A stretch of 64,000 bases of DNA from Bacteroidota bacterium. Its GTDB lineage: Bacteria; Bacteroidota; Bacteroidia; NORP154. The stretch lies in assembly GCA_043811005.1 (NCBI GenBank), contig JBDRNO010000260.1:19579-83578 (forward strand). The letters run 5' to 3'. A program made the translations under genes and the position numbers. This document shows, one piece after another, positions 7,388 to 62,500 of this stretch. Under the pieces are notes generated by a model, which did not search any database, was not told where the DNA came from, and saw only the letters and a list, made by a program, of their open reading frames with translations. Within the stretch, counting starts at the first letter, position 1; each line of letters starts with the position of its first letter.

Positions 7388-7458
7388 TTAAGAACATAGC
7401 TACGCTATTTAATTAAAAAGTAAAAAGTAAAAGTGAGTAAATTCCGATACTATTAATT

Positions 7459-7815
7459 ATGGCATCAATAAGAAAAAAACACAGAAGAGAAAGAATAAAA
7501 TACAGGATTAGAAAAACAATTTCCGGCACTGCCGAAAGACCTCGTTTAACAGTATTTAAAAGCAATAAACAAATTTACGCTCAATTGATTGACGATTTAG
7601 TAGGACATACCCTTATAGCAACATCCTCAAGAGATGACAAATCCGCCCAAAATATCCCAAAAATTGAGCAAGCAAAAATTGCGGGTAAATCCATTGCTGA
7701 AAAAGCAATTAAATCCGGAATCACAAATGTTGTATTTGATAGAAACGGATACTTATATCACGGCAGGGTCAAAACATTAGCTGAAGCAGCCAGAGAAGCA
7801 GGACTTAAATACTAA
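7459..7815 (+). CDS. rplR: 50S ribosomal protein L18 (uL18)
   Basis: Translation matches uL18. Operon position is consistent. Confidence 0.9.
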
Positions 7816-10559: not shown

Positions 10560-10824
10560 TGAACATAATAGAGTAATTTTATTGAAAAACTTTAAATATC
10601 TCCCGCTAAGCATCCGCCAGCTGGCGGACATAGAACGCAATGATTTATATAAAAAGTAATATTATAGCGAACTTTGCGGGCTATGCGGGATAAAACTTTA
10701 AAATGCGAAGCATTGCTCATTAAGATAATTAATTTTATAGGTATTCGCGAATCTTACGATTTCACGATGGGTTTAAGTGCGGTATGCCCAAAGGTATGAG
10801 TAAATTCCGATACAATCAATTAGG

Positions 10825-13131: not shown

Positions 13132-13265
13132 TAACATAACTTTGCAAATGAACAAAAAAAGATAAATTCTAAAATGTTTTTTTAAATATTGAAATACAAA
13201 GTATTCACGAACACCTTTAAAAACAAACAATAGAGTGAGTAAATTCCAATACAATAAATTTTATT

Positions 13266-21081: not shown

Positions 21082-23562
21082 TCAACGCAAAACCACTATC
21101 TTCTTTTGAAACAGAACGCCACGGCTATCCCCGATAGATACTATATATATCCCTTCCTCCCATCCCTTTGTTTTTATCTCGAATTCCCTGGAGTGTAATT
21201 TGTTATTTTGCAAAAACTTTTCGCAAACAATCCTACCGTTAACATCAACTACCTTTAAAACTGATCCGTTCACAAATCCGGCAATACTCGTTGTTTTAAC
21301 AACAAAGCTGTCTGATGCCGGGTTGGGGTATACTGCATAGACCGGGGCAGACCGCCAGCTGGCGGGCGCTTCGGTCTCAGGAATGGCTGAATAGATCGTA
21401 TCCCCTTTCATCGCAAACACATATTCTCCAAGAACTAATGAATCAATAATAATTACTCCAAATTTATCATAAGAATTTCCTGAAATTTTTGTATAATATT
21501 CATATTCATGCCAATTTTCAGAGGTATTCATCCTGTATAGCAATACCATGCTGTCTTCTGTTAAGGAATCGGCAATTAACAGGTGATCAAAGTATGAGCT
21601 TCCACTTTCCCTGCCATCGTAGACTATTTCTGCACTTGCAGAAAAATTATTTGGCAGAATGCCATCTATTTTCCAGTACCTGTTTGGTGAGAGTTTGTAA
21701 ATTGTATTAGTTACTATTGGGTCAGGTGCTGTCCAGTTATGTTCAACCCGGATAAAAGCCGAATCTGTAATTGCATTTACAGTAATTTTAAATCGTGCAT
21801 GACTAAAATTGTCAATCCAGGTAGTATCGATCACCTTTGCTTCACTTGATATTGCATCACTGATTTTACTATTCATATTAAGTGCTGTGAAAACAGGGCT
21901 GAATGGTAATGTAAATGTAAAAGAGGAAGTTGCACCAGACATAATAATTGTTTCCGTTTGCTCGTTCCAGCTAGTATCCATAAAAGTGATCTCAAGAGGT
22001 ACATTATTGTAATATGAAGGCGCTCCTGTTAATTTTTGTTTAACATAAACTGTTACATCATAATAAATGCCATTTGGCGTTATTTGAGTTGAGTTAATTG
22101 AAAAATGAGGAAAGCCGGGGTTGAACACCCAGTTATTAAAAAAATCAGTAAGATCAATGCCAGTGATAGAGGAAAGCTGGTTTCTCAGATCATAGCTGTT
22201 TATATGAGTGAATTGGTTATTTGCCAAAAAAGTGGTTAACCCACTAAAGAACAGTGAATCTCCCAAATACCCTCTTAAGGTATGAACTACATCACCCCCT
22301 TTATCATATACATGGTCGCCATAAGTATATTCATGCGGAATGCCGGAAATAGCCCTGTAGCCATTCTCGGTGATGTGGGCAAGGTGCAGAACCTTTTCGT
22401 GGTTTCTTCTTACTTCTTGCAGATATGTATCCTTATCATACACATCTTCCCAGAATAAAAACTCCGAATAAACGGCAAATCCTTCGTTCAGCCACATGTC
22501 TTCGGCTGTTTCACAGGTTACCATATCTCCCCACCAGTGATGAGAAAGCTCGTGCGCCATGATATCCTCAGCCCACAAGCTTCCATCAGCAAAGCTTCGA
22601 TGATAGGCAATATTAGTAGCATGCTCCATAGCCCCGCCAACAACAGGAACAAGGTTATACCCAATTCTGTCAAATTGATGCGGACCATAATATGTTTCGT
22701 ATACACCTATTGCATCGGTCAGATGCAAAAAGGAATTTTTGAGTTTTGTGGTATCAGAAGGTAAAGCATTTAACATTATTGGAATGGGTCCGTTAATACC
22801 ATTATATGATATATTTACAGTGGCATAGCCGGCAACAGCCACAGAAGCAAGATAAGATGGAATTGTCTGATCCATTTTCCAATGCCATATAATAGTGCTA
22901 TTGGGATTATGGACTGTATCTTGTAATAAGCCATTACAAAAAGCGTTTTTGGAATCTTCAGTAGTAATGAAAAATTCGTGGGTAGACCGTTCTACAAAAT
23001 TGTCAAAGCAAGGAAACCACGCCCTGCCGAAATTATGAGGATTCACTTCAAATCCAACACCAATATTATAGGCATATCCCCCGCTGAAATAAAATCCTCC
23101 TCCGTAAGTAGATGTGTCTATTTGAGGTGTTCCCTCATAATAAACTTTAACACTTGCTGTATCTCCAATATTCATAATGCCTGGAAGCATTGTAACAATC
23201 AAAGTATCATCATAGGAAAAACTTGCTGATTGATTATCCACCTTTATAGAATCAATATTTAATTTTAGCAAATCCAAACTGATAGAATTAATATTATTCA
23301 TTTTAGGGACAAAGGTAATTTCACAATTGCCCTTTATCACTTCATTGGTAAAGTCGGTGATGTCTAAATTGATAGTGTAGTTGAGTATGTCAATGGTATC
23401 GCTGCGACTGTTAGCTTCTTGGGTATCATAAGCGTGACACGGCTTAGAGCCGTGCCACGCTTTGTGTCTGCAACTGTAATAATTCTCCTGCCTGGCAAAA
23501 GCGAAGACAAAAGAAAAAATTAGTGTAAGGATGGTAAATGTATATAAGAATCGTAAATGCAT
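21082..23562 (-). CDS. secreted M1-family zinc aminopeptidase with a T9SS C-terminal sorting domain
   Basis: Signal peptide. HELSHHWWG…NEGFA gluzincin motif. C-terminus …PVYAVYPNPASDSFVVK… with a beta-sandwich tail typical of the Por_Secre_tail. Confidence 0.85.
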   Translation of the reverse strand: MHLRFLYTFTILTLIFSFVFAFARQENYYSCRHKAWHGSKPCHAYDTQEANSRSDTIDILNYTINLDITDFTNEVIKGNCEITFVPKMNNINSISLDLLKLNIDSIKVDNQSASFSYDDTLIVTMLPGIMNIGDTASVKVYYEGTPQIDTSTYGGGFYFSGGYAYNIGVGFEVNPHNFGRAWFPCFDNFVERSTHEFFITTEDSKNAFCNGLLQDTVHNPNSTIIWHWKMDQTIPSYLASVAVAGYATVNISYNGINGPIPIMLNALPSDTTKLKNSFLHLTDAIGVYETYYGPHQFDRIGYNLVPVVGGAMEHATNIAYHRSFADGSLWAEDIMAHELSHHWWGDMVTCETAEDMWLNEGFAVYSEFLFWEDVYDKDTYLQEVRRNHEKVLHLAHITENGYRAISGIPHEYTYGDHVYDKGGDVVHTLRGYLGDSLFFSGLTTFLANNQFTHINSYDLRNQLSSITGIDLTDFFNNWVFNPGFPHFSINSTQITPNGIYYDVTVYVKQKLTGAPSYYNNVPLEITFMDTSWNEQTETIIMSGATSSFTFTLPFSPVFTALNMNSKISDAISSEAKVIDTTWIDNFSHARFKITVNAITDSAFIRVEHNWTAPDPIVTNTIYKLSPNRYWKIDGILPNNFSASAEIVYDGRESGSSYFDHLLIADSLTEDSMVLLYRMNTSENWHEYEYYTKISGNSYDKFGVIIIDSLVLGEYVFAMKGDTIYSAIPETEAPASWRSAPVYAVYPNPASDSFVVKTTSIAGFVNGSVLKVVDVNGRIVCEKFLQNNKLHSREFEIKTKGWEEGIYIVSIGDSRGVLFQKKIVVLR

Positions 23563-24323: not shown

Positions 24324-24467
24324 TCAGCGTAGCACGGTTTAAAACCGTATCACGCATACAAAATTCATTTATGAATTTTAATGCAATTTGCATATTTTTC
24401 TTAATAAATTTATCTATTATGAGTTTATGTTTTATTATACAATAAATTTGCTCCTTAATATAAAATA

Positions 24468-26366
24468 ATGGAATTAATCTTTAAAAAATCTTGTTTAATA
24501 TTATTTTTGCTATTTGTATTTTTTTATGAACAAATTAGCGCTCAGCAATCTTTTTCATTAAAGATAACACCTTCCATTGCTGACGAACATTGCGATATCC
24601 TCAAAAGCATCCCCTATAATAATAAATTCCCAAACGAGCAGGCACGGAACAAAGAGCTTCGAAATTTCCTGTACAAACTATACGATAATGGCTATATAGC
24701 CGCCTACTTCGATAGTTTGACAGAGGATTCTGTTATTGATCCTTTTTTGAATGCTGAGTCACGCCTGCGTGCCGAAACATTAGACAGCCTGTACTTTAGC
24801 GTGCAGTCACGTGACTCCGCCTTCAAAGTATCGTCAATGCTTATAGCATACATCAATCCTGGTGGCATTTATAAATGGGCAACCATCAAGCCCGGTAATG
24901 TTGATGAAGGCATATTGAGCAAGGTGGGATTCCGCGAAAAACTATATAGCAACAAACCGATCAATTATAAGGAGGTGCGAAAACTCCACGAAAAGCTGCT
25001 GACATATTGCGAGAACAACGGCTATCCTTTTGCCTGGGTTAAGCTTGATAGTGTTAAGTTTTCAGATACTTTATTAGAAGAAAGCGTGACACTGTTTAAA
25101 ACCGTGCCACGCTTGAACTTAATTGAAGCACAATTAAACCTCGCAAAAAATATTGAGGTTCATATTGACAGCATCATCATAAAAGGTGATGCGAAAATAA
25201 CACCTGTTTATATCTACAACCACCTCGGCATAAAACCCGGCGACCTGTATGATGAATCCTTGGTAAGCAAGATAGGACCGAAATTAGAAGAGTTACCTTT
25301 TGTAAAACAAACCAAACCGTTTAAAGTTGTATTTACTGAAAAAGATACAAAAATAATCCTCCTTCTCACCGACAAGAAAGCGAGTATATTTAACGGAATA
25401 CTTGGTGTTTTGCCCAACAGCGAAACCACTGGAAAGCTGCTGATCACCGGGGAAGCCCGTTTAAAGCTATTAAGCTCTTTAGGGCGTGGCGAGCTTATTG
25501 ATATTGACTGGAGAAGCCTTCAGCCAAAAACTCAAGACCTAAAAGCCAGGTTTGTATATCCTTTTATACTATCATCACCTTTTGGTGTTGATCTTAAACT
25601 AAAGCTGTATAAAAAAGACACTCTATATTTGGATTTACATAAGTATCTCGGCATTCAATACCTGCTGAGCGGCACCAATTACCTCCAAGTATTCATCAAT
25701 AACAAAACCACCAGTTTATTAGCTAAGAATACAACTGTTTTGCCTTATGCAAACGTAAATACTATTATATACGGACTCGGATATAAAAATGAACGGTTAG
25801 ACTACCGCCTTAATCCTACAAAGGGATATCAACTCAACATAAATGCCGGTGCGGGAAACAAGACAATTCAAGAGACCAAGGATATAAATCCTGACAGTGT
25901 AGTACTTAAATCAACCGAATACGATCTTGACATTGATTTTGATTTATTCATGCCAATAAAAAACAGGGGGGTAGCGAATTTTGGAATAAAAGCAGCTTAT
26001 TTATCGAGTAAGTCCATCTTTGAAAATGAGCTGTTCCGCATGGGAGGAATAAGCACATTGAGGGGTTTTGATGAAGAATCCATGCTTGCTTCTGCCTATG
26101 CAGTATTTACTTTGGAGTATCGATATTTATTAGAGCAGAACTCTTATCTGTACTTGTTTTTTGACGGAGCGTATTATGAAAATGAATACAGAAGGATCAA
26201 TAATCTTGGGAATTGGCTTGATAGACCGTTTGGCTTTGGTGCAGGCATCAGTTTTGAGACAAAGGCGGGAATATTTTCAATAAATTATGCTCTTGGAAAA
26301 CAATTAGAAAACCCGATAATGCTAAAATCGGCTAAAATTCATTTTGGAATTGTTAACCACTTTTAA
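24468..26366 (+). CDS. Omp85/BamA-family outer-membrane beta-barrel protein (surface antigen D15 domain)
   Basis: Signal peptide. C-terminal beta-barrel pattern ending …IHFGIVNHF, with terminal aromatic residue. Confidence 0.6.
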   Translation: MELIFKKSCLILFLLFVFFYEQISAQQSFSLKITPSIADEHCDILKSIPYNNKFPNEQARNKELRNFLYKLYDNGYIAAYFDSLTEDSVIDPFLNAESRLRAETLDSLYFSVQSRDSAFKVSSMLIAYINPGGIYKWATIKPGNVDEGILSKVGFREKLYSNKPINYKEVRKLHEKLLTYCENNGYPFAWVKLDSVKFSDTLLEESVTLFKTVPRLNLIEAQLNLAKNIEVHIDSIIIKGDAKITPVYIYNHLGIKPGDLYDESLVSKIGPKLEELPFVKQTKPFKVVFTEKDTKIILLLTDKKASIFNGILGVLPNSETTGKLLITGEARLKLLSSLGRGELIDIDWRSLQPKTQDLKARFVYPFILSSPFGVDLKLKLYKKDTLYLDLHKYLGIQYLLSGTNYLQVFINNKTTSLLAKNTTVLPYANVNTIIYGLGYKNERLDYRLNPTKGYQLNINAGAGNKTIQETKDINPDSVVLKSTEYDLDIDFDLFMPIKNRGVANFGIKAAYLSSKSIFENELFRMGGISTLRGFDEESMLASAYAVFTLEYRYLLEQNSYLYLFFDGAYYENEYRRINNLGNWLDRPFGFGAGISFETKAGIFSINYALGKQLENPIMLKSAKIHFGIVNHF

Positions 26367-30121: not shown

Positions 30122-31453
30122 TTAAATGCAAACTTTAATAATATGTCTTACCCTTTCCCTCAGAATCAAATTTAATTCTGTTTGTTGCCTTCCATGAATT
30201 GAGGGATGACCATATAATGATTTCCGCATGTCAGCCATCCCATTAAATCCGGCAGACCTTTCCATAGCGTTTTTTAATCCGTCCCTGGCTGAAAAACGTT
30301 CCTGTGATATCATATAAAAAATACCCTTTTCGTGAAGAAGATCAGCGAGGTATTCCTGTTCAGTCTGTCCGGGGGTTGGAACAAATATTGCCTTTTTCCC
30401 AAGAACCGCCAGGTCCATTATTGTTGAGTAACCGGGTCTGCTCAATACCAATTTTGAAGAAAGAATTGCCTCCCGCATTTTGCTGGTTTCAAGATGGTGA
30501 TAAATTTCAATTCCAGCCCCACGAGCCCACTCGCTGCCCCCCTGAGTACTTGTAAAAGTGGGATTCTTGCGCTCTGGAACTTCCTCCCCTTCGGATTTTT
30601 TTTCAGCGGACGCTGTGGATGCCTTCAGCGGAGGGACTCCCCTCCCTTCGGGAGGGGCCGGGGGTGGGCTGTTGCTTTCTTCGGTTACTCCCCTGACCAT
30701 AAGAACTTTTAAGGATGCACTTTCCAATTGTTTCATCACAATTATTTCAAATATGCTTCGTTGTGGTTCAGGCCCTGAAACTATCACCATCAGATCGTAT
30801 TTATAATTACCCATAGACAAATCCTGCCCTTTCAGTGAAGGAGGATTTTTGTCGAGGTTATTATCAAAAAAATCAAATCTTGAAAGCGGACCAATATAAA
30901 ATGCATTATCCGGTAAAGGATATCCATGTGCCAGGTCTCCTGAAAGATTTTCACTTCCCTGGAAATCCGGCACCCAACATTCATTGTATTTATTGATAAA
31001 GAAGCGGCTTATACGGTGGAGGATCGGTTCAAGGAATTTCAAATTCTCCGGGCATTTCACCATTACCTGGTGAGTTATGAAAACAGAGTGTACGGTTTTG
31101 TTCCATAAACCAAATCTGTTGTCGGAGATGACAGCATCAATATTGTATTTTTTAATTATGGATTTTAATAAGGTGTGTTCTTTGTAAATCCCATGAAAAA
31201 TTTTGGGCAATGACATCATCATTTTCCGTTCCATACTGCTATTACTGGGATATGATATGCTGTAGCCGGGAAATTTAATGAACTCTAATTGAGGAAATTC
31301 TTTCTTTAAAAGTGCCAATGGCCGTTTGTCTGCACCTATAACTACTTCAACTTCGCTGTTGATCAATTCTTTTATTACCGGGATGCAGCGTGTTGCATGT
31401 CCCAATCCCCAATCCAATGGGCAGACCAGTATGCGTTTTTTGGTTTTACTCAT
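30122..31453 (-). CDS. MurG-like GT-B glycosyltransferase (GT28/UDP-glycosyltransferase-like) carrying a ~45-60-aa GC-rich in-frame insertion
   Basis: N-terminal …LVCPLDWGLGHATRCIPVIKEL… and the C-terminal nucleotide-sugar-binding region match GT28/GT1. The middle segment …TEESNSPPPAPPEGRGVPPLKASTASAEKK… is encoded by an atypically GC-rich hairpin-rich stretch. Confidence 0.7.
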   Translation of the reverse strand: MSKTKKRILVCPLDWGLGHATRCIPVIKELINSEVEVVIGADKRPLALLKKEFPQLEFIKFPGYSISYPSNSSMERKMMMSLPKIFHGIYKEHTLLKSIIKKYNIDAVISDNRFGLWNKTVHSVFITHQVMVKCPENLKFLEPILHRISRFFINKYNECWVPDFQGSENLSGDLAHGYPLPDNAFYIGPLSRFDFFDNNLDKNPPSLKGQDLSMGNYKYDLMVIVSGPEPQRSIFEIIVMKQLESASLKVLMVRGVTEESNSPPPAPPEGRGVPPLKASTASAEKKSEGEEVPERKNPTFTSTQGGSEWARGAGIEIYHHLETSKMREAILSSKLVLSRPGYSTIMDLAVLGKKAIFVPTPGQTEQEYLADLLHEKGIFYMISQERFSARDGLKNAMERSAGFNGMADMRKSLYGHPSIHGRQQTELNLILRERVRHIIKVCI

Positions 31454-31698
31454 ATAGAGGGGTAATTATAGTTTGTTTATTAAGTCGGTTATTTACCTCA
31501 CCCCCTGCCCCTCTCCTAAAAACAGTAGAGGGGAGAGCCAACGTGCAGGCTCTCCTCCGCCAGCTGGCGGAGAGATACAGAGGGAGTGAAAAATCTTAGC
31601 AATAAAATATCTTGTCTATTCTTTTGATTTTTCACGACTTAATACAAATACATTAAACTAAACGCGATGAAAGGGCATTTATTTCGACATTTTGCAAT

Positions 31699-31863
31699 TC
31701 AAATAACCTCTTGATGGGAACAGCCGTCTTTGAATCTACAGCCTATACAGACTGAACTGCTATTATTACCGGATCTTTCTTTTTTGATATTTTTTACCAG
31801 TTTATAAACAACATATATTACCGCTGCAATGACTATCACTAATGTTATAATTTCCTGAGTCAT
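31699..31863 (-). CDS. FeoB-associated Cys-rich small membrane protein (54 aa)
   Basis: Not in the ORF track. Manual translation gives MTQEIITLVIVIAAVIYVVYKLVKNIKKERSGNNSSSVCIGCRFKDGCSHQEVI: N-terminal TM helix, basic stretch and Cys-rich tail. Located 3' of feoB, as this family typically is. Confidence 0.5.
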   Translation of the reverse strand: MTQEIITLVIVIAAVIYVVYKLVKNIKKERSGNNSSSVCIGCRFKDGCSHQEVI

Positions 31864-31944
31864 GCTTTTTTGAATACAACTTTTAAATTGATTAAAAATA
31901 TTGATCTTTAGATTCTAAATTTATTCAAATACAAGAATTTGAAT

Positions 31945-31963
31945 AAAAACCGCTTTTAGCGGG
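31945..31963 (-). terminator. Putative intrinsic terminator on the minus strand, 3' of feoB
   Basis: On the minus strand reads cCCGC-TAAAA-GCGG followed by TTTTTATT. The stem is short, so this is weak. Confidence 0.35.
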
Positions 31964-32134
31964 AAATACATTTTACCAATATGATACAAGTCGGCAGTCT
32001 TCAGTCGGCAATCAGAAGTCTACAGTAAGAATTTTTTTTGCCGACTGGGGACTGCCGACTGTAGACTTGTCTATTAACACCAACAAAATTATCGTCCGCC
32101 AGCTGGCGGATGGTAAGTTTGCTTTTTAAAGAGC

Positions 32135-34408
32135 CTACAAAAATATACTACCGATCTGATAAACTAAAAAAGATACGATCCATGCCAGTACAGTTGTATA
32201 TGTCAATGTAAAAATTGCCCATTTCCAGCTGTTGGATTCTTTTTTTATGGCTGCAACTGCTGCAACACAGGGGAAATAGATCAGAATAAATAACATGAAA
32301 CCGAAAGCGATCAATGGAGTAAATACCCTTTGTCCTTTCATCTCACCGGAATGATAGGTATGGCTCTTCAATTTATGCATTAGGGTTTGGGATATCTCAT
32401 CAACATCCGGATCAGCCTGGTAAAGAACTCCCATTGTGCTAACAATAATTTCTTTAGCGCCAAGCCCTGCGATAAGGCTAACTCCCATTTTCCAATCAAA
32501 GCCCAGGGGTTTGATAGCAGGTTCAATAAAGTGTCCCATTCTTCCTATATAGGATATTTCATGTCTTTCAGCTTCCTTCTCAAGTTCCAACTGTCTTATG
32601 TGTTCATTTTTTTCAAAAGTCAGCGCTGACACCTTCTCCTCATCCAAAGCGTTTAAACTGCTTATTTGTTTATTATAGCCGGCTCCGGTTTGTGAAATAA
32701 GTTCATCATAATTTTTTGAGTACTTTACATTCCTGGGGTAGTATCCCAATGCCCATATTATAATGGATGCGATCAGGATAATTCCTCCCATTTTTTTCAG
32801 GTATTCAGAAGCATAGTTCCACATGTGTAACAGGATGAATTTCAAGGTCGGAACCCTATATGTAGGGAGCTCCATAACAAAAGGGACCTCATGTGACTTA
32901 AACAATGTCTTCTTAAAAACCACTGCCATTCCTATTGCAAGGGCAATACCTATAAAATATATGGAAAACAACATTGTTCCGGGATTATTAGGAAAAAACG
33001 CACCTATAAGCAAGATGTAAACCGGCAACCTGGCACTGCATGACATAAATGGATTTATGAGCATGGTCAGCAAACGGTCATTCCTGTTTTCTAAAGTCCT
33101 CGTTGCCATAATAGCAGGAACATTACAACCGAATCCCATTATCAGGGGAATAAATGATTTACCGTGCAGCCCGATCTTATGCATTATTTTATCCATTATG
33201 AATGCCGCACGCGACATATAACCAGTATTCTCCATCAATGAAATAAAGAAAAAGAGGATAATAATGTTTGGAAGAAAGACTATTACACCACCTACACCAC
33301 CTATAATGCCATCAATTAACAGGTCTTTTAGAGGCCCTTCTGTCATGAATGTATCAACTGAATCACCTATTATTGTAACAAGCTTGTCTATCCAATCCAT
33401 GGGCATCTTTCCGAATGTGAAAGTTGACTGGAACATCACCCACATGAAAAGGATAAAAATTGGGAATCCCCATAGCTTGTGAGTTAAAAAAGTATCAATT
33501 ATTTCTGTTTTTTTCCTTCTGGTTGGTATTCCTTCAGTGTATGTTTCTTTTACAGCTCCGGAAATAAAACCATATTTGGCATCTGTAATCAAAGTTTCAC
33601 CGTCTTCCCTGTACTGAGTTTCCAGTTTATTTATTTCTTCTTTTGAGATATCGTCAATCTCCCGGAAGTTTTTGCAAACTTTAAGCATGTCATAAACTTC
33701 CTGATCTTTTACTATAAGCTTTATAGCTAAAAATCTGGATGATAACCTGTCTGTATTTGAGATATTCTCCTTAACCTTGATTTTTTCCTGGATGGCTTTT
33801 ATTGATTTCTCAATAGGTGAGCCATAATTAATATGAATATGCCTGACTGTTGGCTCTTTATCTTCAAAAACCTCACTAGCTTTTTGGAATAACTCATTAA
33901 TGCCCTTTCCTTTGGAACTGACAGTGGGTATAATCGGGATACCGATCATTTTACCCATAGCTTCATAATCAAATCTATCACCTTTTTTCAACAATTCATC
34001 ATACATGTTTAAGGCAATCACTACCTTGATATCCATGTCAATTAGCTGTGTGGTAAGGAACAAATTTCTTTCAAGGTTTGAGGCATCAACAATGTTGATC
34101 ACAATGTCAGGATGTTTTTCAAGAATATGGTTCCTTACGTAAAGTTCCTCCGGACTATGAGCTGATAAGGAATATGTTGCGGGTAAATCTGTTATATTGA
34201 ATGTATACCCTTTTTGTTTAAATTCAGCCGTTTTGGAATCTATTGTTACCCCACCATAGTTGCCTGTATGCTCCCTTACTCCTGAGGCGTGATTAAAAAG
34301 AGATGTTTTCCCTGAATTGGGATTTCCTACTAATGCAACATTTATTATTATTCCCATTTCTTTGGTTGAAGTTTTATGAACACCCTTTGTAATTGTTCCT
34401 TTTCTCAT
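32135..34408 (-). CDS. feoB: ferrous iron transporter FeoB
   Basis: N-terminal G-domain (GNPNSGKTSLFN…) followed by a polytopic membrane domain. 757 aa. Confidence 0.93.
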   Translation of the reverse strand: MRKGTITKGVHKTSTKEMGIIINVALVGNPNSGKTSLFNHASGVREHTGNYGGVTIDSKTAEFKQKGYTFNITDLPATYSLSAHSPEELYVRNHILEKHPDIVINIVDASNLERNLFLTTQLIDMDIKVVIALNMYDELLKKGDRFDYEAMGKMIGIPIIPTVSSKGKGINELFQKASEVFEDKEPTVRHIHINYGSPIEKSIKAIQEKIKVKENISNTDRLSSRFLAIKLIVKDQEVYDMLKVCKNFREIDDISKEEINKLETQYREDGETLITDAKYGFISGAVKETYTEGIPTRRKKTEIIDTFLTHKLWGFPIFILFMWVMFQSTFTFGKMPMDWIDKLVTIIGDSVDTFMTEGPLKDLLIDGIIGGVGGVIVFLPNIIILFFFISLMENTGYMSRAAFIMDKIMHKIGLHGKSFIPLIMGFGCNVPAIMATRTLENRNDRLLTMLINPFMSCSARLPVYILLIGAFFPNNPGTMLFSIYFIGIALAIGMAVVFKKTLFKSHEVPFVMELPTYRVPTLKFILLHMWNYASEYLKKMGGIILIASIIIWALGYYPRNVKYSKNYDELISQTGAGYNKQISSLNALDEEKVSALTFEKNEHIRQLELEKEAERHEISYIGRMGHFIEPAIKPLGFDWKMGVSLIAGLGAKEIIVSTMGVLYQADPDVDEISQTLMHKLKSHTYHSGEMKGQRVFTPLIAFGFMLFILIYFPCVAAVAAIKKESNSWKWAIFTLTYTTVLAWIVSFLVYQIGSIFL

Positions 34409-34564: not shown

Positions 34565-35891
34565 TTATTTTACATGCAGCATTTTTTTCTTTAAAACCAT
34601 TCCATCACTTTTCAACACATAATAATACATTCCACTTCCTATGTTATATTCTTCGGGATCAAACCTTTCAATATACTTTCCATAATCATACCTCTGATCA
34701 TCTATCATTGTTCTTATTTCCCTTCCCATGAAGTCATAAACTTTAAGACTTATTATTGAACTTTTGTGTAATTTGAATGAGATAAAAGTCTCGTTGGTAA
34801 AAGGATTCGGGCGATTTTGATTTAGCAAGACATTAGCTGCAAATAGCTCTTCCTCAACACCGGAAATCAAATCCGGGTCAACAATAGCAGTCCAAATGCT
34901 CAGATCAGAGTCATCTAATCTTGTCCATATCGGTCTAATAACACTATCATGTGCAGTTATATTGGTATAATCTCCAAAAAACACTGATTGATCTGGCAGG
35001 AAAGGGGATTCACTAATTTTAAAATTTGTAAAGGTATATCCGCCATCGGTTGAAACAACCATATAAACATCCGTTTGATTGTTGTTATAATTTCTGCGGT
35101 CATAAAAAACAAAATATAAATATCCGTTTGTTTGATCAATTGTCATCCAGGTGAAGAACTGTTGTTTCCCGGGAGGGTCATTATTGACACGGATCGGGGC
35201 ACACCATGTATTTCCTCCGTCTGTTGATTTTGTCAGCCACACATCAGTGTCATCGGAACCGTTTCGCTGATCGGTCCAATTAATGTAAATAGATCCGCTA
35301 TATGGTCCGTTGCTAAGATCACAAACAGTTATAGGAAGACCATGTTTGCCCACCGTCAACCGATTTGGAAAATAAGATGATGGTGCTGTCATTGACGTTT
35401 GTACTGCCATAATCATCAAATTGTGTCCATGTTACATAAATGTGATTGGTATTTCTATCAACTACCACCCACTCTTTATCCTGCGCTTTGGTTCCATTTA
35501 AACCCATGTAAGTTCCGTCTGTCCATGTTGTTCCGTTATCTGATGATTTCTGACAAACAATCCTGTCTATCCAGTTTCCTGAATCAGGGTTGGAAAGATG
35601 GAAATAATAAAAATGACCAGCAGTGTCAACAAAAACAGCGGGATCGCCCCACACACCGTAAGAAGAGGATTGCACATGCTCAGTCCAGGTATATCCCCCG
35701 TCAGAAGAAACATAGTAATTATCTAAATTGGCAGCAGCTACAATTTTATCGGTATTATTGGGATCCAAGACAATGGTTGTCTCATTGGGATTATTCAAAT
35801 TACTTATAAGCACATTTGTATGTTGCGCGAAGAGTTGATTAAAAAGGAATAAGACGATTATAAAGCAAAATTTTTCCATACTTCTAATCAT
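34565..35891 (-). pseudogene. BNR-repeat (sialidase-like) T9SS cargo protein disrupted by a frameshift
   Basis: The upstream ORF (190 aa) has a signal peptide and SxDxGxTW BNR repeats. The overlapping downstream ORF (284 aa, +1 frame) continues BNR repeats and ends in a T9SS C-terminal domain (…YYYVLKSDGMVLKKKMLHVK). The frames switch near 35320-35345, with no homopolymer at the junction. Confidence 0.75.
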
Positions 35892-36966: not shown

Positions 36967-39900
36967 AAACAGGAAACAGGAAACAGGATCATAAATACCT
37001 ATAATATCAGCAACTTCAAAACTATCTGTTACGGTGCACCCCAAAGAATCTTCAATTACTACAATATAAGTGCCCCCAGTGATGCTGTCTAAATCTTCTG
37101 ATGTTGCACTATTTGACCATGAAAAAGTATAAGGGGGTGTTCCTCCTGTAACAGTTAAGTCAATTGCACCGTTACCTATAGAAGAAGAATCATCAGTTAC
37201 ATTTACCGAAAGTGAAATAGAACCGGGTTGGGTGATGGTTGCGCTGTCAATTGAAATACATTCCTTTGAATCTGTAACGGTTATTGTATATGTGTCTGCT
37301 ACGAGTTCTGTAACATTTTGTGTTGTTTCACCGGTTGACCATAAATAACTATAAGGCATTGTCCCTCCGCTTGTTGTGACTGTAGCGGAACCATCATTTT
37401 CTCCGAAACAACTAACATTTGAAACATCTGTCAAGAGTGATATTAAATCGGGCTGGATAACAGTTGCGCCTGTTATGGAAACACACCCGCTTGAATCAGT
37501 TACGGTAATATCATAAGTTCCTGGAGCTAAGCCGGTAATGTTTTGAGTTGTATCTCCATTAGACCAGTTATATGTAAAGGGACTTGTTCCTCCGGAAACC
37601 GTTAAGTTAATTGCACCGTCATTATCCCCATAACAGCTTACATCAGAAGTAACAGCAGTTAAAGAAGCAGCGTCAATATTGTTTATCAAAACCGTGTCTG
37701 TTTGAGTGTATCCCATGTTATCAGTAACTGAAACAAGATAAATTCCAGCTGTTAGCCCTGTAGCAGTTGCCGATGTTTGGTTTGACGGGTCATCCCATTG
37801 ATAGGAATATGGCGGTATTCCGTCTGTTACGATAACGGTTGCACTTCCGTCATTACCGGAACAGGTAGCATCTGTTGAGAATATGGATAATATCATAGGT
37901 ATGTTCTGAACGATATTAACTTCAAAATCATCAAAATAAAATCCGTCTTCCCTAAGGTACAGATCACTAACTATCCGGAATTTAATCAATATGCTTTGCC
38001 CTGCATAATCATCAAGATCTATCTCTTCCAAAACCCATGATGTTTGAAACCCGTCATAAAGGGGCTTTCCCTGGTCCTGGTTGCTGTTTCCTGTTGTAGT
38101 GTATTTGCCGCAAAGGGGTGTCCATGTGCTTCCCCCATCTGCTGATGCTAAAACCTGGGCGTAATCATATCCCAGTTCTATTTCCCATCTCGCCCAATAC
38201 GAAAGCCGGGCAGTTAAAGCATCGGTCAGATCAATGGGAGTGGATAAGGTAATGGAAGTACTTGAGCTATTCGAATAGTTACCTGAAGGGGAATCGGTTA
38301 TTGAACCGGAAGAGGTGTAGTATATAGAATTACTAACTCCCCACCCGGATGTTGATGTCCAATTCGTCATGGTATTGCAATTGTCGGTAAGGATAGTGCT
38401 GATCTGCCCGTATGTGTTAGTAATTGTGTCGGTATAGGTAAACAGCCCATTATCTACAGCGAGGACAAAACTAAATTGCTGTCCGTTTTGAATACTGGTA
38501 TCCAGTGAGAAAGAAATAGAGTCGTACATTTCCTCCAAAAGGGTTAAAAACGGATATGATTTGGGGCTTCCAACGCTTGTAATTTCAGTTCCCAGGGGTT
38601 GAATTTCAACGGTAAAGGTTGCCGGGCTGTCTAATCCCAGCCGTTGTATCTTAAAATTGAAATAATCGTTTTGCTGGTTGAAGATTGAAGGAGACAAGTC
38701 TTCTACTATTGAGTATTTGCCAACGAGGTGTGCAGCTGCTAAATTCTGCCACATATTGTCTTTGCATAAATCTATGATAGCAGAAGAAGGAGGCCAAAAG
38801 CCATAATTATCCGGTCCTGCTTCGGGTGTCATGGATATGATCTTATTTTTGGTGAATTGTTCTCCGTACATCCAATCATCAGTATCTCCGTTGGTGACAT
38901 ATCCTACTGTTTGGTCTCCTGTTCCAAAGATATAATCATTATCACGGGTCATGAGCCGGGCATAACTGAAAAAGATAGCAGAATCAGGAGTGAAGATGGA
39001 TTGCTCATAACCCCAGGGATATATCAACATATTGCTGTAAGTATGGTAGTTTAATGTTATCAGGATCTCATGGCTTTCACAAAATTCTCTTATAATATCG
39101 GTTTCCGGTTCTGAGAAAGGCCCCGTGCCTCTGTATGTCTCGTCATTTGTGTTTGGAGAAGACCCATCGTTATCATACCCCCACATATAGCCGTAGTTAC
39201 GGTTGAGGTCAACTCCGAAAGTGCCGTCACCGTTATTTCTCCTGTTTTTGCGCCACATACCGCCACCACTTGGGTTGGTGGTCCAGTTGTAGATATATCC
39301 GTCAGGGTTGATACAGGGGATGAAATACATTTCGGTGTTATCAACCAGATTGGTTACTTCATCGTCAGTGGCGTAGTTTTCCAGCAGGTAATACATATAA
39401 AATATCATCTGAGATATTGATGCGGGCTCCCTTGCGTGATGAAGTGCCGTGTAAAGCACCTCGGGTTCCGGTTCATTAATGGAGGGATTGTCTGATATTT
39501 TGACCCAGTAGATGGGTCTTCCTTCGATGGTGGTATTTGTTCCGATCTGTTGCCTAACGGTTATAATGGTTGGAAATTTGTATGCCATTGAGTCCAAATG
39601 GTCCAGCATCTCCTGGTAAGTGAAATATCCCCCCATTGATCCGAGGGTAAAGTTATCAGGAACAGGATAATCAACGCCAGAAGAGCAGCCATCTGAAAAA
39701 CGTTTTTTTTTTGAAGATTTTTTATTGGTTGGCTCTCCCTCTCCGCCATCTGGCGTAAGGTCAGGGGTTGTGCTTGTGTCGTTCTGTCTTTGGTAATGCT
39801 CTACTACGTCATCAATCAGGACATCATACTTAAAACCGTTTGATTTGATAAGCTCTATCTCTTTATATGAAAAGTCAGATATAAAGAAAACACCTTTTTT

Positions 39901-49118: not shown

Positions 49119-50229
49119 ATGATCACCCCCGACCAGCTCAACGACCTAAAGGAACGCCTGGCTGCGCTAAGGAGGCATCTTTGACATTGCCGTCAAGCTA
49201 AAACAGATTGCCGAAGAAGAACAGCAAAGCCAGGCAGTAGATTTCTGGAATGATCCTAAGAAAGCCGAACTGTTCCTCAAACAGAGAAGCAATAAAAAAA
49301 TTTGGACATCTGCATTTAATAAAACCAATAGCAGTCTGGAGGATCTTCTTGTGCTTTACGATTTCTTCAAAACGGGTGAGGCTTCCGAACAGGAAATGGT
49401 TGAACAATACAATATATCCCTGAAACTTATTGAAGATCTGGAATTCAAGAACATGCTTTCAAGTGAGGAAGACCGTCTCAATGCTATACTGGAGATAAAC
49501 TCCGGTGCAGGCGGCACCGAGAGTCAGGACTGGGCAGAAATATTGATGCGTATGTATATCATGTGGGGTGAGAAGAACAATTTTGTTGTGAAACAAGTGA
49601 ATCATCAATCCGGTGAAGGGGCGGGAATAAAATCAGCTACATTAGAAATTGAAGGGGATTTTGCTTATGGATACCTGAAAAGTGAGAATGGTGTCCACCG
49701 GTTAGTGCGCATCTCCCCTTTTGATGCCAATAAAAAACGCCACACCTCCTTTGCATCGGTGTTTGCTTTCCCGCTTATTGATGATTCAATTGAAATAGAA
49801 ATTAACCCCTCTGATATTACATGGGACACTTTCAGATCCGGCGGTGCAGGCGGGCAATCTGTTAATAAATTGGAAACTGCTGTACGTCTAAAGCACGAAC
49901 CATCAGGGATTATCATTGAAAACTCGGAAACAAGATCACAGCTTGATAATAAGAATAGGGCAATGCACCTTCTCAAATCACGATTATATGAGCTTGAACT
50001 GAGAAAACGCCAACAGGAGAAGAAAAAGATTGAAAGCAGCAAGAAAAAGATAGAGTGGGGGTCACAGATCCGGAATTATGTGATACACCCCTATAAAATG
50101 GTGAAAGACCTGCGGACAGGAGTGGAAACATCAAACGTGCAGGCAGTTTTAGATGGAGATATTGATAGATTTATCAAGGCATATCTGATGGAATTCGGGC
50201 ATAATCGAATTAATCCCGATAATTCCTAG
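49119..50229 (+). CDS. prfB: peptide chain release factor 2, expressed via programmed +1 ribosomal frameshift (join 49119..49181, 49183..50229)
   Basis: ORF1 [21 protein letters not shown]-stop contains the canonical site AGGAGG-CAT-CTT-TGA-C (internal SD plus CUU UGA C). The +1 frame continues [12 protein letters not shown]… into the 292-aa ORF carrying the SPF and GGQ motifs (…[12 protein letters not shown]…). Confidence 0.92.
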
Positions 50230-55838: not shown

Positions 55839-55968
55839 AACACTAGTTAAAATTTAATACCCCGCCATTCTTCCACCAGCTGGGTGACGAATGCGGGGTA
55901 TTTTTCAATGTTCTAATAAAATTCCCTATTAAAGTCTGCACAGTACAGATTTATCAGGATATATGGAA

Positions 55969-59516: not shown

Positions 59517-62500
59517 ATGCGAAAATTTATTATTTTCTTTCTTTTATTTTTCAGCTTACATATTGTTACCGACTTTGCCGGGATGCATTTGTTTGCGCAA
59601 TTTTACAATGGCTCTCATCAGGAATTTGGAAAAAGCAGGGTTCAGTACAGGGAATTTTTATGGTTTATTTATAAATATAATAAGTATGATATTTATTTTT
59701 ATACTGGGGGAAAAGATATTGCAATATATACAGCAAAATCTGCAGATATGATAATTGAGGAAATAGAAGATTTCTTTGATTTCGGGTTGGAGGATAAGAT
59801 ACAGTTTGTCATCTATAATAAACTTTCAGACTTAAAACAGAGTAATATTGGTTTTGCTACTGAAGAGCAGTACAATGTAGGTGGAGTAACGCATATAGTG
59901 GGATCGAAAATATTTCTGTATTTTGAAGGAGACCATCAAAAGCTTAAACAACAGATCAGGGCAGGGATTACCGAAGTGCTTATAAGCCAGATGATGTATG
60001 GTGGTAACTGGAAAGATATGGTTAAAAACTCCACACTTTTGTCTTTGCCTGATTGGTATTTACAAGGACTTATCTCTTATGTTTCAATCGCATGGAATGT
60101 TGAGATAGAAAATCGTGTGAGAGACGGAATCCTTTCCGGAAGATATAAGAATTTTAACCGTTTAACCGGTGATGATGCTGTTTATGCAGGACATTCTATA
60201 TGGAATTTCATAGTTGAGAGATACGGAAAATCATTAATCCCCAGTATATTATACATGACAAAAACCAGCAGGAATATAGAAAGTGGGTTTCTGTTTGTTT
60301 TGGGTTCTTCTCTTAAAAACTTAACAAATGATTGGCTTGATTATTACTATAACAAATTTTATGTTTCTGATAAATTCAGAGAGTTTCCTGATAAAAACTC
60401 ATTGCTTATAAAACCTAAAGCCAATAGGGTTTACAGCCAGTTAACTGTAAACTCTGATGGCAGGTATGCTGCTTATGTTACAAATAAAACAGGGAAGTAT
60501 AGAGTATGGCTATTCGATCTTAATACCGGGAAAAAACATCGCATATTATCAGGAGGTGTTAAGTTGGAACGATTGAATGATTATTCTTATCCAATGCTGG
60601 CATGGCATCCTTCTGCTGATTTGTTGTCAATAATAACAGAGAAAAAAGACAGGATATTACTGACGTATTATACACTTCCATCAAAAAAAAAACATATCCG
60701 GCTATTTCGATCAGGCAGGGAAGTAAGAGAGTTACATCACTTCCAGAAGATTCTTGATTTTTCATATTCAAATGACGGGAAAAAATTTATCATTTCTGCT
60801 GTTCAGGAAGGACGTTCAGATATATTTGTTTATAATACTGCAACGAATATGTATGAGCAAATAACAAATGATATATACGATGATTTATATCCTATATTTA
60901 TTCATGATTCGAAAGAAATTGTTTTTAGCTCCAATAGAGTTAGTGATACAATAAGATATATCCATAAAGGATCCTTTGGGGAAGGTGGAGCAGGACACAC
61001 ACCACGCCCCCCTCTTGATAGAGTGGGAGAGCCCGCTCACAATTCACCCGCACAAACCATCCGCCAGCTGGCGGATGGGAGTATTAATATCAATACTAAC
61101 AACGCATTAAGTACCTCAACTGGAAAAGATTTGTTCATATATGATTACAAATACAAATCTGCCCTACCTGTCAACCTTTACCAAACCGAAGACATAAAAA
61201 TTTCAGCACAGACAAATATTTTACAAAAAATTACTAATACTCCTTTTATTGACGAAATTCATCCTGTAGAATATGACGATCTTCATCTAAGTTATCTTAG
61301 TATTAAAGATGGCATTATCAATCGTTACCTTGTAAGTTTCGACAGTGTTATCAGTCATATTGACACTATTGCCCATTACAGGGCCGTAACAACATCTTTC
61401 CCAATTACGAATTACTCGAGAAACATTCTTGAACATGATATAAATACAAAATCGAAAAAATATTCAGAGATAATTTATTCTAATGGAAAGTATAGGATGT
61501 ATGTGGAAAATATATTGCAGCAATCAGATATTAAAATATCTGAATCCGGTGAAAATAAAATACCCCCCAGTGATGAACCATTTCACCGGGAGGAAATGAA
61601 TACTGCAATTGAAGATAGTTTGATTATCCAAAGATTCTCCGAAGATAACACTACTGATTTATTTGAGCGGGAATCCGAATATACCGATATTACAGGTGAA
61701 GGGAAAATTGACATAAATAACTATATTTTTGAAATTGAAAATTCCCCAGCACAATTAAGAAATAAAAAACCTGTTGAAAAAAGTAAAATTGCCGGTGAAA
61801 TGGCTCGCGAAGAAGACGGGATTAGTTCAAAAATCAAGGAAACTGAGTTGATTCCAGTAGACACTACATCCACTGATAATTTTGAAATTTCAGATACATC
61901 TGATCTTTCCTCCGTTTCACAGGATAGAACATCTCAATTTTTCCCTGACATTTTCAAACAAGCAAAACAGTGGAATTATAACATAGCATTTTCAACAGAT
62001 TATTTTGTGAGCCAGCTTGACAATAGTTATCTTAATGAAACATATCAGAAATTTTCCGGGGGTGGCGCTATCTTTACTAATCCGGGATTAAATTTATTGT
62101 TTAAGATAGGCATCAGCGATTTGTTTGAAGACTACAAGATTGTAGGTGGTGTTCGTTTATCTGGCAATCTGAACAGCAATGAGTACTTTTTAAGCTTTGA
62201 GAACCTAAAAAAACGTCTTGATAAGCAGATCGTATTCCACAGGCAGGGTTTTCTTACTTTTCAAAGCAATGGAACAGGGATCCGCGTTCATACTCACGAT
62301 ATTAAATATGTATTGAAATGGCCATTTAATGAAATAATAAGCATTAAAGGAACCGGTAGTTTGAGAAACGACAGGTCTGTTTTTCTCTCAACCGACTATA
62401 TGAGTTTACAGGAACCCGATATTTATGATACCTGGGGTGGGTTGAAGGCGGAGCTCATTTTTGATAATACTATCAATAAAGGATTAAATCTTTATAATGG

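Follow-up and report, generated by a model that had tools for sequence, protein, structure and literature searches.

Short GC-rich hairpin repeats recur between and within genes of an uncultivated member of the Bacteroidota

The DNA considered here is a stretch of 64,000 nucleotides (hereafter the window) from one uncultivated Bacteroidota genome (GCA_043811005.1, contig JBDRNO010000260.1, positions 19,579 to 83,578 of the forward strand), and it contains a family of GC-rich palindromic repeats built around a 16-bp perfect palindrome, TCCGCCAGCTGGCGGA (TCCGCC-AGCT-GGCGGA), termed PAL below. All window counts refer to these 64 kb, which have a GC content of 36%. The gene set is of the housekeeping type and includes a ribosomal-protein operon with secY, an M1 peptidase with a sorting domain of the type IX secretion system (T9SS), a GT28-type glycosyltransferase, feoB, an M14 carboxypeptidase with SprB repeats, the genes for SSB, HU, RNase G, prfB and fumarase, a GldJ-like FGE-sulfatase protein, PorP/SprF and a large Tricorn/PD40-like outer-membrane protein.

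Exact copies of PAL start at 10613, 31556, 32095 and 61060, in agreement with the preliminary description of this DNA, which had also listed a 14-bp core at 21352-21365. That core is present within a copy with two mismatches (at 21351), and a further two-mismatch copy, at 39742-39757, had been overlooked. Only 0.01 matches to PAL are expected by chance, and six matches were reached in 0 of 100 shuffles of the window, so that the excess reported earlier stands at four exact and two near copies. The half-site CTGGCGGA occurs four times in the window, each time within PAL, and TCCGCCAG has just one copy in addition to those in PAL; as the half-sites show no enrichment of their own, the palindrome (dyad) itself is the unit. 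Perfect GC-rich hairpins number 11 in the window, where 1.3 would be expected; PAL accounts for five.

Similarity among the copies extends past the core. Three of the four exact copies are identical beyond the 16 nt and have 18-23 nt in common: ACCATCCGCCAGCTGGCGGA (20 nt) is shared by the outer-membrane-protein and feoB copies, and CATCCGCCAGCTGGCGGAC(G)ATA by the secY and feoB copies. The repeat family proposed in the preliminary description is real in that its copies are related outside the core as well, and multiplicity within the genome is the mark of such a family. The identity of the four window copies, loop included, together with the common flanking bases, points to copying rather than convergence.

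Along the window, the first exact copy (10613-10628) is intergenic: secY ends 54 nt before it, and map (M24 peptidase) follows at a distance of about 200 nt. At 21333-21382 (minus strand; fold z = -3.1), a 38-nt extended imperfect palindrome with the core CCGCCAGCTGGCGG contributes the residues PASWRS to the M1 peptidase, in the linker that precedes its T9SS C-terminal domain. An intergenic mosaic at 31497-31588 (plus strand) comprises three hairpins, namely CCCCTCT..AGAGGGG, GGAGAGCC..GGCTCTCC and PAL (31556-31571), inside an imperfect 11-bp outer stem (CTCACCCCCTG/CAGAGGGAGTG). Folding, suggested earlier for a unit of about 70 nt, gives for this element a multibranch structure of outer stem and three hairpins (z = -3.9; 0 of 200 shuffles). 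A small FeoB-associated open reading frame (ORF) has the PAL of 31556 about 130 nt to its 3' side, and the glycosyltransferase starts about 100 nt downstream of this copy. Downstream of feoB (32089-32116, 25 nt after the stop codon), PAL is part of a 12-bp stem with T-rich runs on both strands (z = -4.3). The degenerate copy TCCGCCATCTGGCGTA at 39731-39771 (minus strand) lies 3 nt from a GGCTCTCC module and has a weak terminal motif; its reading frame gives LTPDGG, part of the N-terminal linker in the M14 carboxypeptidase/SprB protein. In a loop of the Tricorn/PD40-like outer-membrane protein, a GC-rich mosaic at 60987-61081 (plus strand) consists of CCCCTCT..AGAGTGGG, GGGAGAGCC, a spacer and the 22-nt palindrome CCATCCGCCAGCTGGCGGATGG, and is an in-frame part of a 35-aa insertion.

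Two further features are relevant. The long imperfect palindrome noted earlier at 55859-55899 (41 nt, 70 nt after the FGE-sulfatase/GldJ-like gene and followed by a T-run) is well formed (z = -5.5); its centre, CCAGCTGG, has three mismatches to PAL, similarity is confined to that centre, and whether it belongs to the PAL family is uncertain. A GC-rich in-frame insertion in the glycosyltransferase (30510-30680, minus strand) carries the hairpin CCCCTCCC-TTCG-GGGAGGGG and no PAL core.

PAL and two further hairpin modules make up mosaics of 90-105 nt, which are present in three copies. Within the window, GGGAGAGCC occurs at 31531 and 61025 only, with a CCCCTCT/AGAG(G/T)GGG hairpin ahead of both sites, which confirms the extended architecture described before for 31508-31571 and 61009-61075; GGCTCTCC adjoins PAL at 31548 and 39731. 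The terminal motif CCACCCCCGGCCC is common to the glycosyltransferase insertion and the start of the 31497 element, and a related form occurs at both ends of a 160-nt multi-hairpin element in a metagenome-assembled genome (MAG) of the Bacteroidia (L002). BLASTN comparison of the mosaic and the other palindromes with 459 loci gave PAL-level matches only.

Some copies resemble intrinsic terminators, as the preliminary description had proposed for those between genes. This fits the copy after feoB, which has a GC-rich hairpin with T-rich tails on both strands just after the gene and is plausibly a bidirectional terminator, and also the palindrome at 55859-55899, which is probably a terminator. 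It does not fit the copy after secY (10613), where a T-tract is lacking and a terminator scan found none. The terminator pattern is likewise absent at 31556 and at the intragenic copies. A search of the whole window against Rfam 15 at gathering score gave zero matches, and for 31400-32200 only weak, chance-level matches appeared at E values up to 10. The terminator-like copies bear on an alternative to copying, in which hairpins would be kept by selection for RNA or single-stranded DNA structure (as terminator, RNA-stability or processing signal, or pause site) and PAL would be reached by point mutation or quasi-palindrome correction. This alternative, the chief rival to copying and in our view a tentative possibility, gains from the feoB copy and loses from the missing T-tract in three of the four exact window copies; most PAL copies either lack a T-tract or lie within coding sequence, and ordinary terminators, unlike PAL, are not identical in sequence. 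The identical loops and common flanking bases of the window copies also speak against it.

PAL contains no stop codon in any of its six frames, as read from its sequence, and intragenic copies are therefore translated. The three intragenic copies in the window use three different frames (IRQLAD, PASWRS and LTPDGG), and none interrupts the reading frame, as stated earlier. Comparison with homologues gave a mixed answer to the related proposal that these copies are in-frame insertions like those of Rickettsia palindromic elements (RPEs). At the outer-membrane-protein site, a segment of 35 aa, FGEGGAGHTPRPPLDRVGEPAHNSPAQTIRQLADG, which corresponds to the GC-rich mosaic, is missing in 18 homologues and reads as a clear in-frame insertion. 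The insertion is not clear at the M1 peptidase, where the protein has 2 aa more than its nearest homologue in a variable linker and the DNA of a 66%-identical homologue carries no hairpin at the site. At the M14 carboxypeptidase, the linker varies in length and exceeds that of the nearest homologues by about 13 aa, so that insertion is an ambiguous reading of the alignment. The glycosyltransferase contains a GC-rich insertion of about 45 aa that is missing in 12 homologues (about 360 aa, against 443 aa here), and all 150 listed matches break in two at this point; two smaller C-terminal insertions were also observed in this protein. The outer-membrane-protein and glycosyltransferase cases together indicate that GC-rich hairpin mosaics do insert in frame in this lineage, PAL being one module of them. 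In an outer-membrane-protein homologue from another organism, a PAL-like hairpin (ATCCGCC-T-GGCGGAT) is present in the same loop at a different position, which is in line with selection for structure.

The same 16-mer recurs widely among unrelated AT-rich genomes, a result that the preliminary description had not foreseen. PAL was found in AT-rich metagenome contigs, genomes of the candidate phyla radiation (CPR), phages and a giant virus. The composite pattern GGAGAGCC-(5-35 nt)-PAL is present in 10 species-representative genomes, seven of which are AT-rich (two Daviesbacteria, Saccharibacteria, Patescibacteria, Bacteroidia, Cyclobacteriaceae and one unclassified). PAL alone was found in 55 viral contigs and gave at least 120 matches in metagenome contigs. 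Among the metagenome matches listed, 81 of 124 copies are in contigs of <45% GC and 17 of 124 in contigs of ≥55% GC, a skew opposite to that predicted from base composition; this AT-rich share (65%) is merely suggestive, as it comes from the listed matches of a scan that had no control scan. Flanks of PAL show no conservation and have the GC content of their locus (117-120 distinct AT-rich copies, among the matches listed), and additional pairing is absent in 84 of 117 AT-rich copies in the same set. A full-text literature search for the core sequence found no paper, and broader searches gave general reviews only.

How special PAL is as a word was assessed with six control scans. In viral contigs, PAL has 18 distinct AT-rich contexts (<55% GC), compared with 12 for TCCTCC..GGAGGA, about 7 (20 loci inspected) for the hairpin with swapped arms, GGCGGA-AGCT-TCCGCC (GGCGGAAGCTTCCGCC), 4 each for TCGCCC..GGGCGA and TCCCGC..GCGGGA, and 2 for the PAL stem with the loop TCGA. 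PAL is the commonest, yet exceeds matched hairpins by a factor of only 1.5-9, and the notion of a uniquely special word had to be toned down. Given this modest excess and the size of the databases, recurrence across genomes may in large part reflect convergent use of a few stable GC-rich hairpins. Occurrence of the matched controls in AT-rich phage DNA is also compatible with selection for structure.

Of 123 copies outside the window (among the matches listed), about 45% lie within ORFs, at unrelated sites and in all three frames, and intergenic copies elsewhere show no bias toward an upstream stop codon; both features are unfavourable to selection for a structural role. Where long open frames are present on both sides, the frame is kept in 27 of 33 intragenic copies. 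An artefact of 16 nt would shift the frame, and the in-frame majority excludes such an artefact. Chance, assembly chimera or a library artefact might be suggested by the presence of the same 16-mer in assemblies of many projects, and is scarcely conceivable in view of the chance expectation for the window, flanks that are contiguous gene sequence, extended stems that are specific to each locus, and a site that is kept across related phage contigs.

Aligned with homologues, PAL falls at variable loops of conserved proteins. In a leucyl-tRNA synthetase of Saccharibacteria (L006, 5498-5527), it gives HC-DPPAGG-CG within a CxxC zinc knuckle and adds 4 aa relative to solved homologues; the spacing of the Cys residues changes from 2 to 6 residues, the Thermus and Neisseria enzymes reading HC-xx-CG. 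Relative to a solved homologue, 4 aa are added at the PAL site of FolD, 3 aa at that of PheS and none at that of RecG. Loci with PAL tend to contain additional copies: 4 exact, 7 with one mismatch and 5 with two mismatches in 773 kb, where about 0.2 are expected. Near copies depart from PAL chiefly at the four central nucleotides, other loops are also seen on the stem TCCGCC/GGCGGA, and one compensatory stem variant, TCCGGCAGCTGCCGGA, was found, all of which count in favour of selection for structure. Multi-copy variants specific to a genome are present at L010, L209/L253, L207 and L282, with longer PAL-based repeats in L010 and L209/L253. In L010, a Cyclobacteriaceae MAG, a 90-nt GC-rich repeat has three copies in 7.7 kb (939-1029, 1378-1467 and 7609-7686) and contains GGAGAGCC, 6 nt and the PAL stem with the loop AGCC, AGCT or ATCC, then a T-run.

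Metagenome copies of PAL are often joined to tRNA fragments, including 5' halves up to the anticodon loop, D-arm pieces, and T-arms with acceptor 3' ends (L220, 70-85; L245, 797-812; L214, 1573-1588; L311, 807-822; L243, 3612-3627). tRNA-type 7-mers are enriched 4-5-fold within 80 nt of PAL, and the tRNA half is duplicated at L220, as at integration sites; no complete tRNA, and none with an intron, is among these pieces. A tRNA intron or split-tRNA leader was considered and rejected, as ARAGORN found no tRNA at five PAL-adjacent sites, with the intron option or with deletions of 16-30 nt.

Two families of related genes allow the origin of single copies to be followed, and they point in different directions. 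In a phage gene (L409), PAL is present as an in-frame segment of 15 nt, CCGCCAGCTGGCGGA (encoding PPAGG), which lies between a Val and a Thr codon; five relatives of 93-98% identity lack exactly this segment, and the downstream DNA is identical in them. By this comparison, PAL in the phage gene is an insertion, and this event opposes an origin by point mutation. In a giant-virus gene family (L318, 1271-1336, with the GVMAG relatives L319-L332), a 10-bp stem is kept at the same codons in 11 paralogues or orthologues via compensatory changes (codon pairs R..A, L..E, P..R and P..G). Its alleles include TTCCGCC..GGCGGAA, which is PAL, and TTCCGC..GCGGAA, TTCCTCCG..CGGAGGAA, TTCCCT..AGGGAA and CTCCCC..GGGGAG. 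Pairing holds in 89% of the alignment cells, both partners have changed in 6 of 10 pairs, and covariation scores 0.51 versus 0.15 after shuffling (0 of 500), with 0.08-0.17 for slid partners. This covariation is among the evidence for selected hairpins, and PAL in the giant virus appears as one allele of a conserved or self-correcting hairpin.

The compensatory variant and the covariation also bear on the idea that PAL is an operator or loading site of a dimeric DNA-binding protein, kept by selection in the manner of parS, because they favour base pairing over half-site identity. Like parS, PAL is a 16-bp perfect palindrome with few, clustered copies (six sites in 64 kb) that are exactly conserved, tolerated in genes as well as between them, and the same across phyla, and its variation is mostly confined to the central 4 bp. 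Unlike parS, PAL has an unrelated sequence and some of its copies (three) are within larger GC-rich mosaic insertions; canonical parS is absent from the window, which is uninformative either way. No candidate protein is encoded nearby, the copies occupy unrelated, non-orthologous positions, and no recurrent neighbour family was detected at the 118 AT-rich loci. A binding-site role is accordingly considered improbable. An accumulation of PAL by biased uptake and recombination, as for the uptake signals of Neisseria (DNA uptake sequence; DUS) and Haemophilus (uptake signal sequence; USS), is very improbable: PAL does occur at tolerant coding positions, sometimes without length change, and its hairpin lies after genes like inverted DUS pairs, but its density is low, the half-site CTGGCGGA is never seen outside the palindrome in the window, and insertions of 9-15 nt are observed.

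Among known systems, repetitive extragenic palindromes and the bacterial interspersed mosaic elements composed of them (REP/BIME) are short GC-rich hairpins with stems of 5-13 bp, present in many copies and located mostly after or between genes of the same direction; some of them act in termination or in RNA stability. RPEs are about 150 bp long; their sequence is conserved family-wide, and so is the peptide that they encode. In yeast mitochondria, GC clusters are short GC-rich palindromes scattered over a very AT-rich genome, between genes and at times in frame within them; they lack their own transposase and are generally regarded as selfish. PAL is similar to REP/BIME in its stem of 6-12 bp with a 4-nt loop, its multiplicity (six copies in 64 kb), its combination into mosaics and the terminator hairpins formed by some copies. 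It differs in being a perfect palindrome without a GTAG or CGTC tag, in that no REP-associated tyrosine transposase (RAYT) was found in the window or near 118 other copies, in a high intragenic share (three of six window copies, as well as that noted above for other contigs) and in its Bacteroidota host. Insertions in the outer-membrane protein and glycosyltransferase are RPE-like, whereas PAL copies share 16-23 nt rather than about 100-150 bp, the larger mosaics have two or three copies only, and the PAL peptide varies by frame (PPAGG, RQLA or SASWR, all three being used). Like yeast mitochondrial GC clusters and the repeats of Volvox, PAL is short, GC-rich and present between and within genes of an AT-rich host; organelle GC clusters are longer (about 30-50 bp) and comprise several families, and no evidence of common descent was found.

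Of REP units, more than 90% have an unpaired GTAG or CGTC at one end; several species have REP units within genes, and GTAG repeats are listed in Proteobacteria, Cyanobacteria, Chloroflexi and the PVC superphylum; RPEs end in CGTC (PMC3733652). RPEs are palindromic and occur in frame within unrelated protein genes, where they add peptide segments in tolerant regions (PMC10969869). Palindromic repeats are also known in organelle genomes, such as that of Volvox (PMC2670323). In PAL, end tags, unit length, conserved peptide and extragenic position all fail, and it is therefore neither a REP nor an RPE as these are defined. Miniature inverted-repeat transposable elements of the Correia or ERIC type were rejected as well, since terminal inverted repeats and a target-site duplication of fixed length are lacking. 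What remains of the RPE/REP-like mobile family proposed in the preliminary description is a real modular repeat with one clear in-frame insertion; the tags, a transposase, target-site duplications and a unit of about 150 nt do not bear it out.

Taken together, we consider the chances to be evenly balanced that PAL and its partners are a family of short GC-rich hairpin repeats, REP-like or GC-cluster-like, copied at the DNA level. PAL copies would descend from one another through copying that needs no nearby gene, either as trans-mobilised insertion or as short-tract templated insertion or gene conversion, by analogy with proteobacterial REP/BIME and yeast mitochondrial GC clusters, which are thought to spread in this way. 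In Bacteroidota, the repeat would be modular, PAL being joined to CCCCTCT..AGAGGGG and GGAGAGCC..GGCTCTCC. Copies would survive where they are harmless, both in spacers between genes and where secreted or outer-membrane proteins have disordered loops or linkers, and at least one, after feoB, may have been co-opted to form a bidirectional terminator stem. Over-representation, identity past the core, modularity and the kept reading frame are shown, as is insertion relative to homologues at one window site and one phage site; mobility of the copies, and the route by which they move, is inferred from these patterns.

Several observations weigh against DNA-level copying of a mobile family. Target-site duplications are inconsistent: direct repeats of ≥3 nt flank 15% of copies versus 8.6% of control positions, so that the search for flanking target sites proposed earlier gave a weak excess only; the repeats vary in length, and the two long cases are in locally repetitive DNA. 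PAL has no separate terminal inverted repeats, and the mosaic at 31497-31588, with its imperfect outer stem, has no target-site duplication. End tags of the REP/RPE type are rare, with GTAG at 3 and CGTC at 11 of 120 copies among the matches listed; among exact window copies, CGTC is present at 32095 only and overlaps the stem. No transposase, integrase or RAYT was found among the proteins of the 64-kb window, and when 1321 ORFs from the 118 AT-rich loci were clustered, no family recurred in more than four of them. In the giant-virus family, all members are equal in length at the site, which together with the covarying hairpin indicates that PAL arose there by substitution, and the 2-aa difference at the M1 peptidase is small. 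The window counts, moreover, cover 64 kb of this genome.

The same material allows a bolder reading, which is unlikely in our estimation, namely that PAL is a distinct minimal element of 15-16 bp shared in identical form by Bacteroidota, CPR bacteria (Daviesbacteria, Saccharibacteria), phages and giant viruses, which would insert itself or convert sequences, including intergenic DNA, tRNA-like fragments and, in frame, essential genes such as that of the leucyl-tRNA synthetase with its zinc knuckle. Either horizontal transfer or some universal process of replication or repair that writes the hairpin would spread it. If true, no smaller mobile DNA would be known, and its range of hosts would be unusually wide.

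Other features of the window were also recorded. A second palindromic family of 33 nt, with the consensus AAGCGTGACACGGTTTAAAACCGTGCCACGCTT, has three copies (23430-23462, 24325-24357 and 25082-25114), one of which is intergenic and two are in frame, in an Omp85-like protein and at the N-terminus of the M1 peptidase; the latter adds no length relative to homologues. A complex inverted repeat at 31985-32067, with arms of 33-36 nt that are 72-82% complementary, is located just upstream of the feoB terminator hairpin, and its match to twister-P3 in Rfam is weak and at chance level. A small unlisted ORF, MTQEIITLVIVIAAVIYVVYKLVKNIKKERSGNNSSSVCIGCRFKDGCSHQEVI, at 31703-31864 (minus strand) resembles what we take to be the FeoB-associated Cys-rich membrane proteins of Bacteroidota. 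A 26-nt repeat, TGAGTAAATTCCGATAC(A/T)AT.AATTA, is found directly upstream of three ORF starts in the ribosomal-protein/secY region (7434-7459, 10797-10822 and 13236-13261), and a 32-nt AT-rich repeat, D1, is found 3' of five gene ends; both may be conserved intercistronic signals. In prfB, a programmed +1 frameshift site (AGGAGG CAT CTT TGA C at 49179; region 49150-49200) links a short upstream frame to the PCRF/RF-1 frame. The gene for a BNR-repeat/T9SS-tail protein (minus strand, 34565-35891) is split into two overlapping ORFs (34565-35419 and 35319-35891), which could be due to a frameshift, a pseudogene or an assembly error.

To our knowledge, descriptions of small palindromic repeats are plentiful for Proteobacteria and Rickettsia, and scarce for Bacteroidota or CPR bacteria. 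The conserved unit is just 16 bp, yet it is translated within enzymes and surface proteins. Either way, the results concern gene annotation, in that GC-rich patches that lie in frame in AT-rich MAGs do not reflect assembly errors, and they bear on how the recurrence of a motif across genomes is to be judged against matched controls. If the hairpin is selected, as the giant-virus covariation suggests, coding sequences of very different organisms would carry a conserved nucleic-acid signal. If PAL is truly copied, it would show how little sequence a selfish element needs, and would be a source of protein loop insertions and new terminators in AT-rich genomes.

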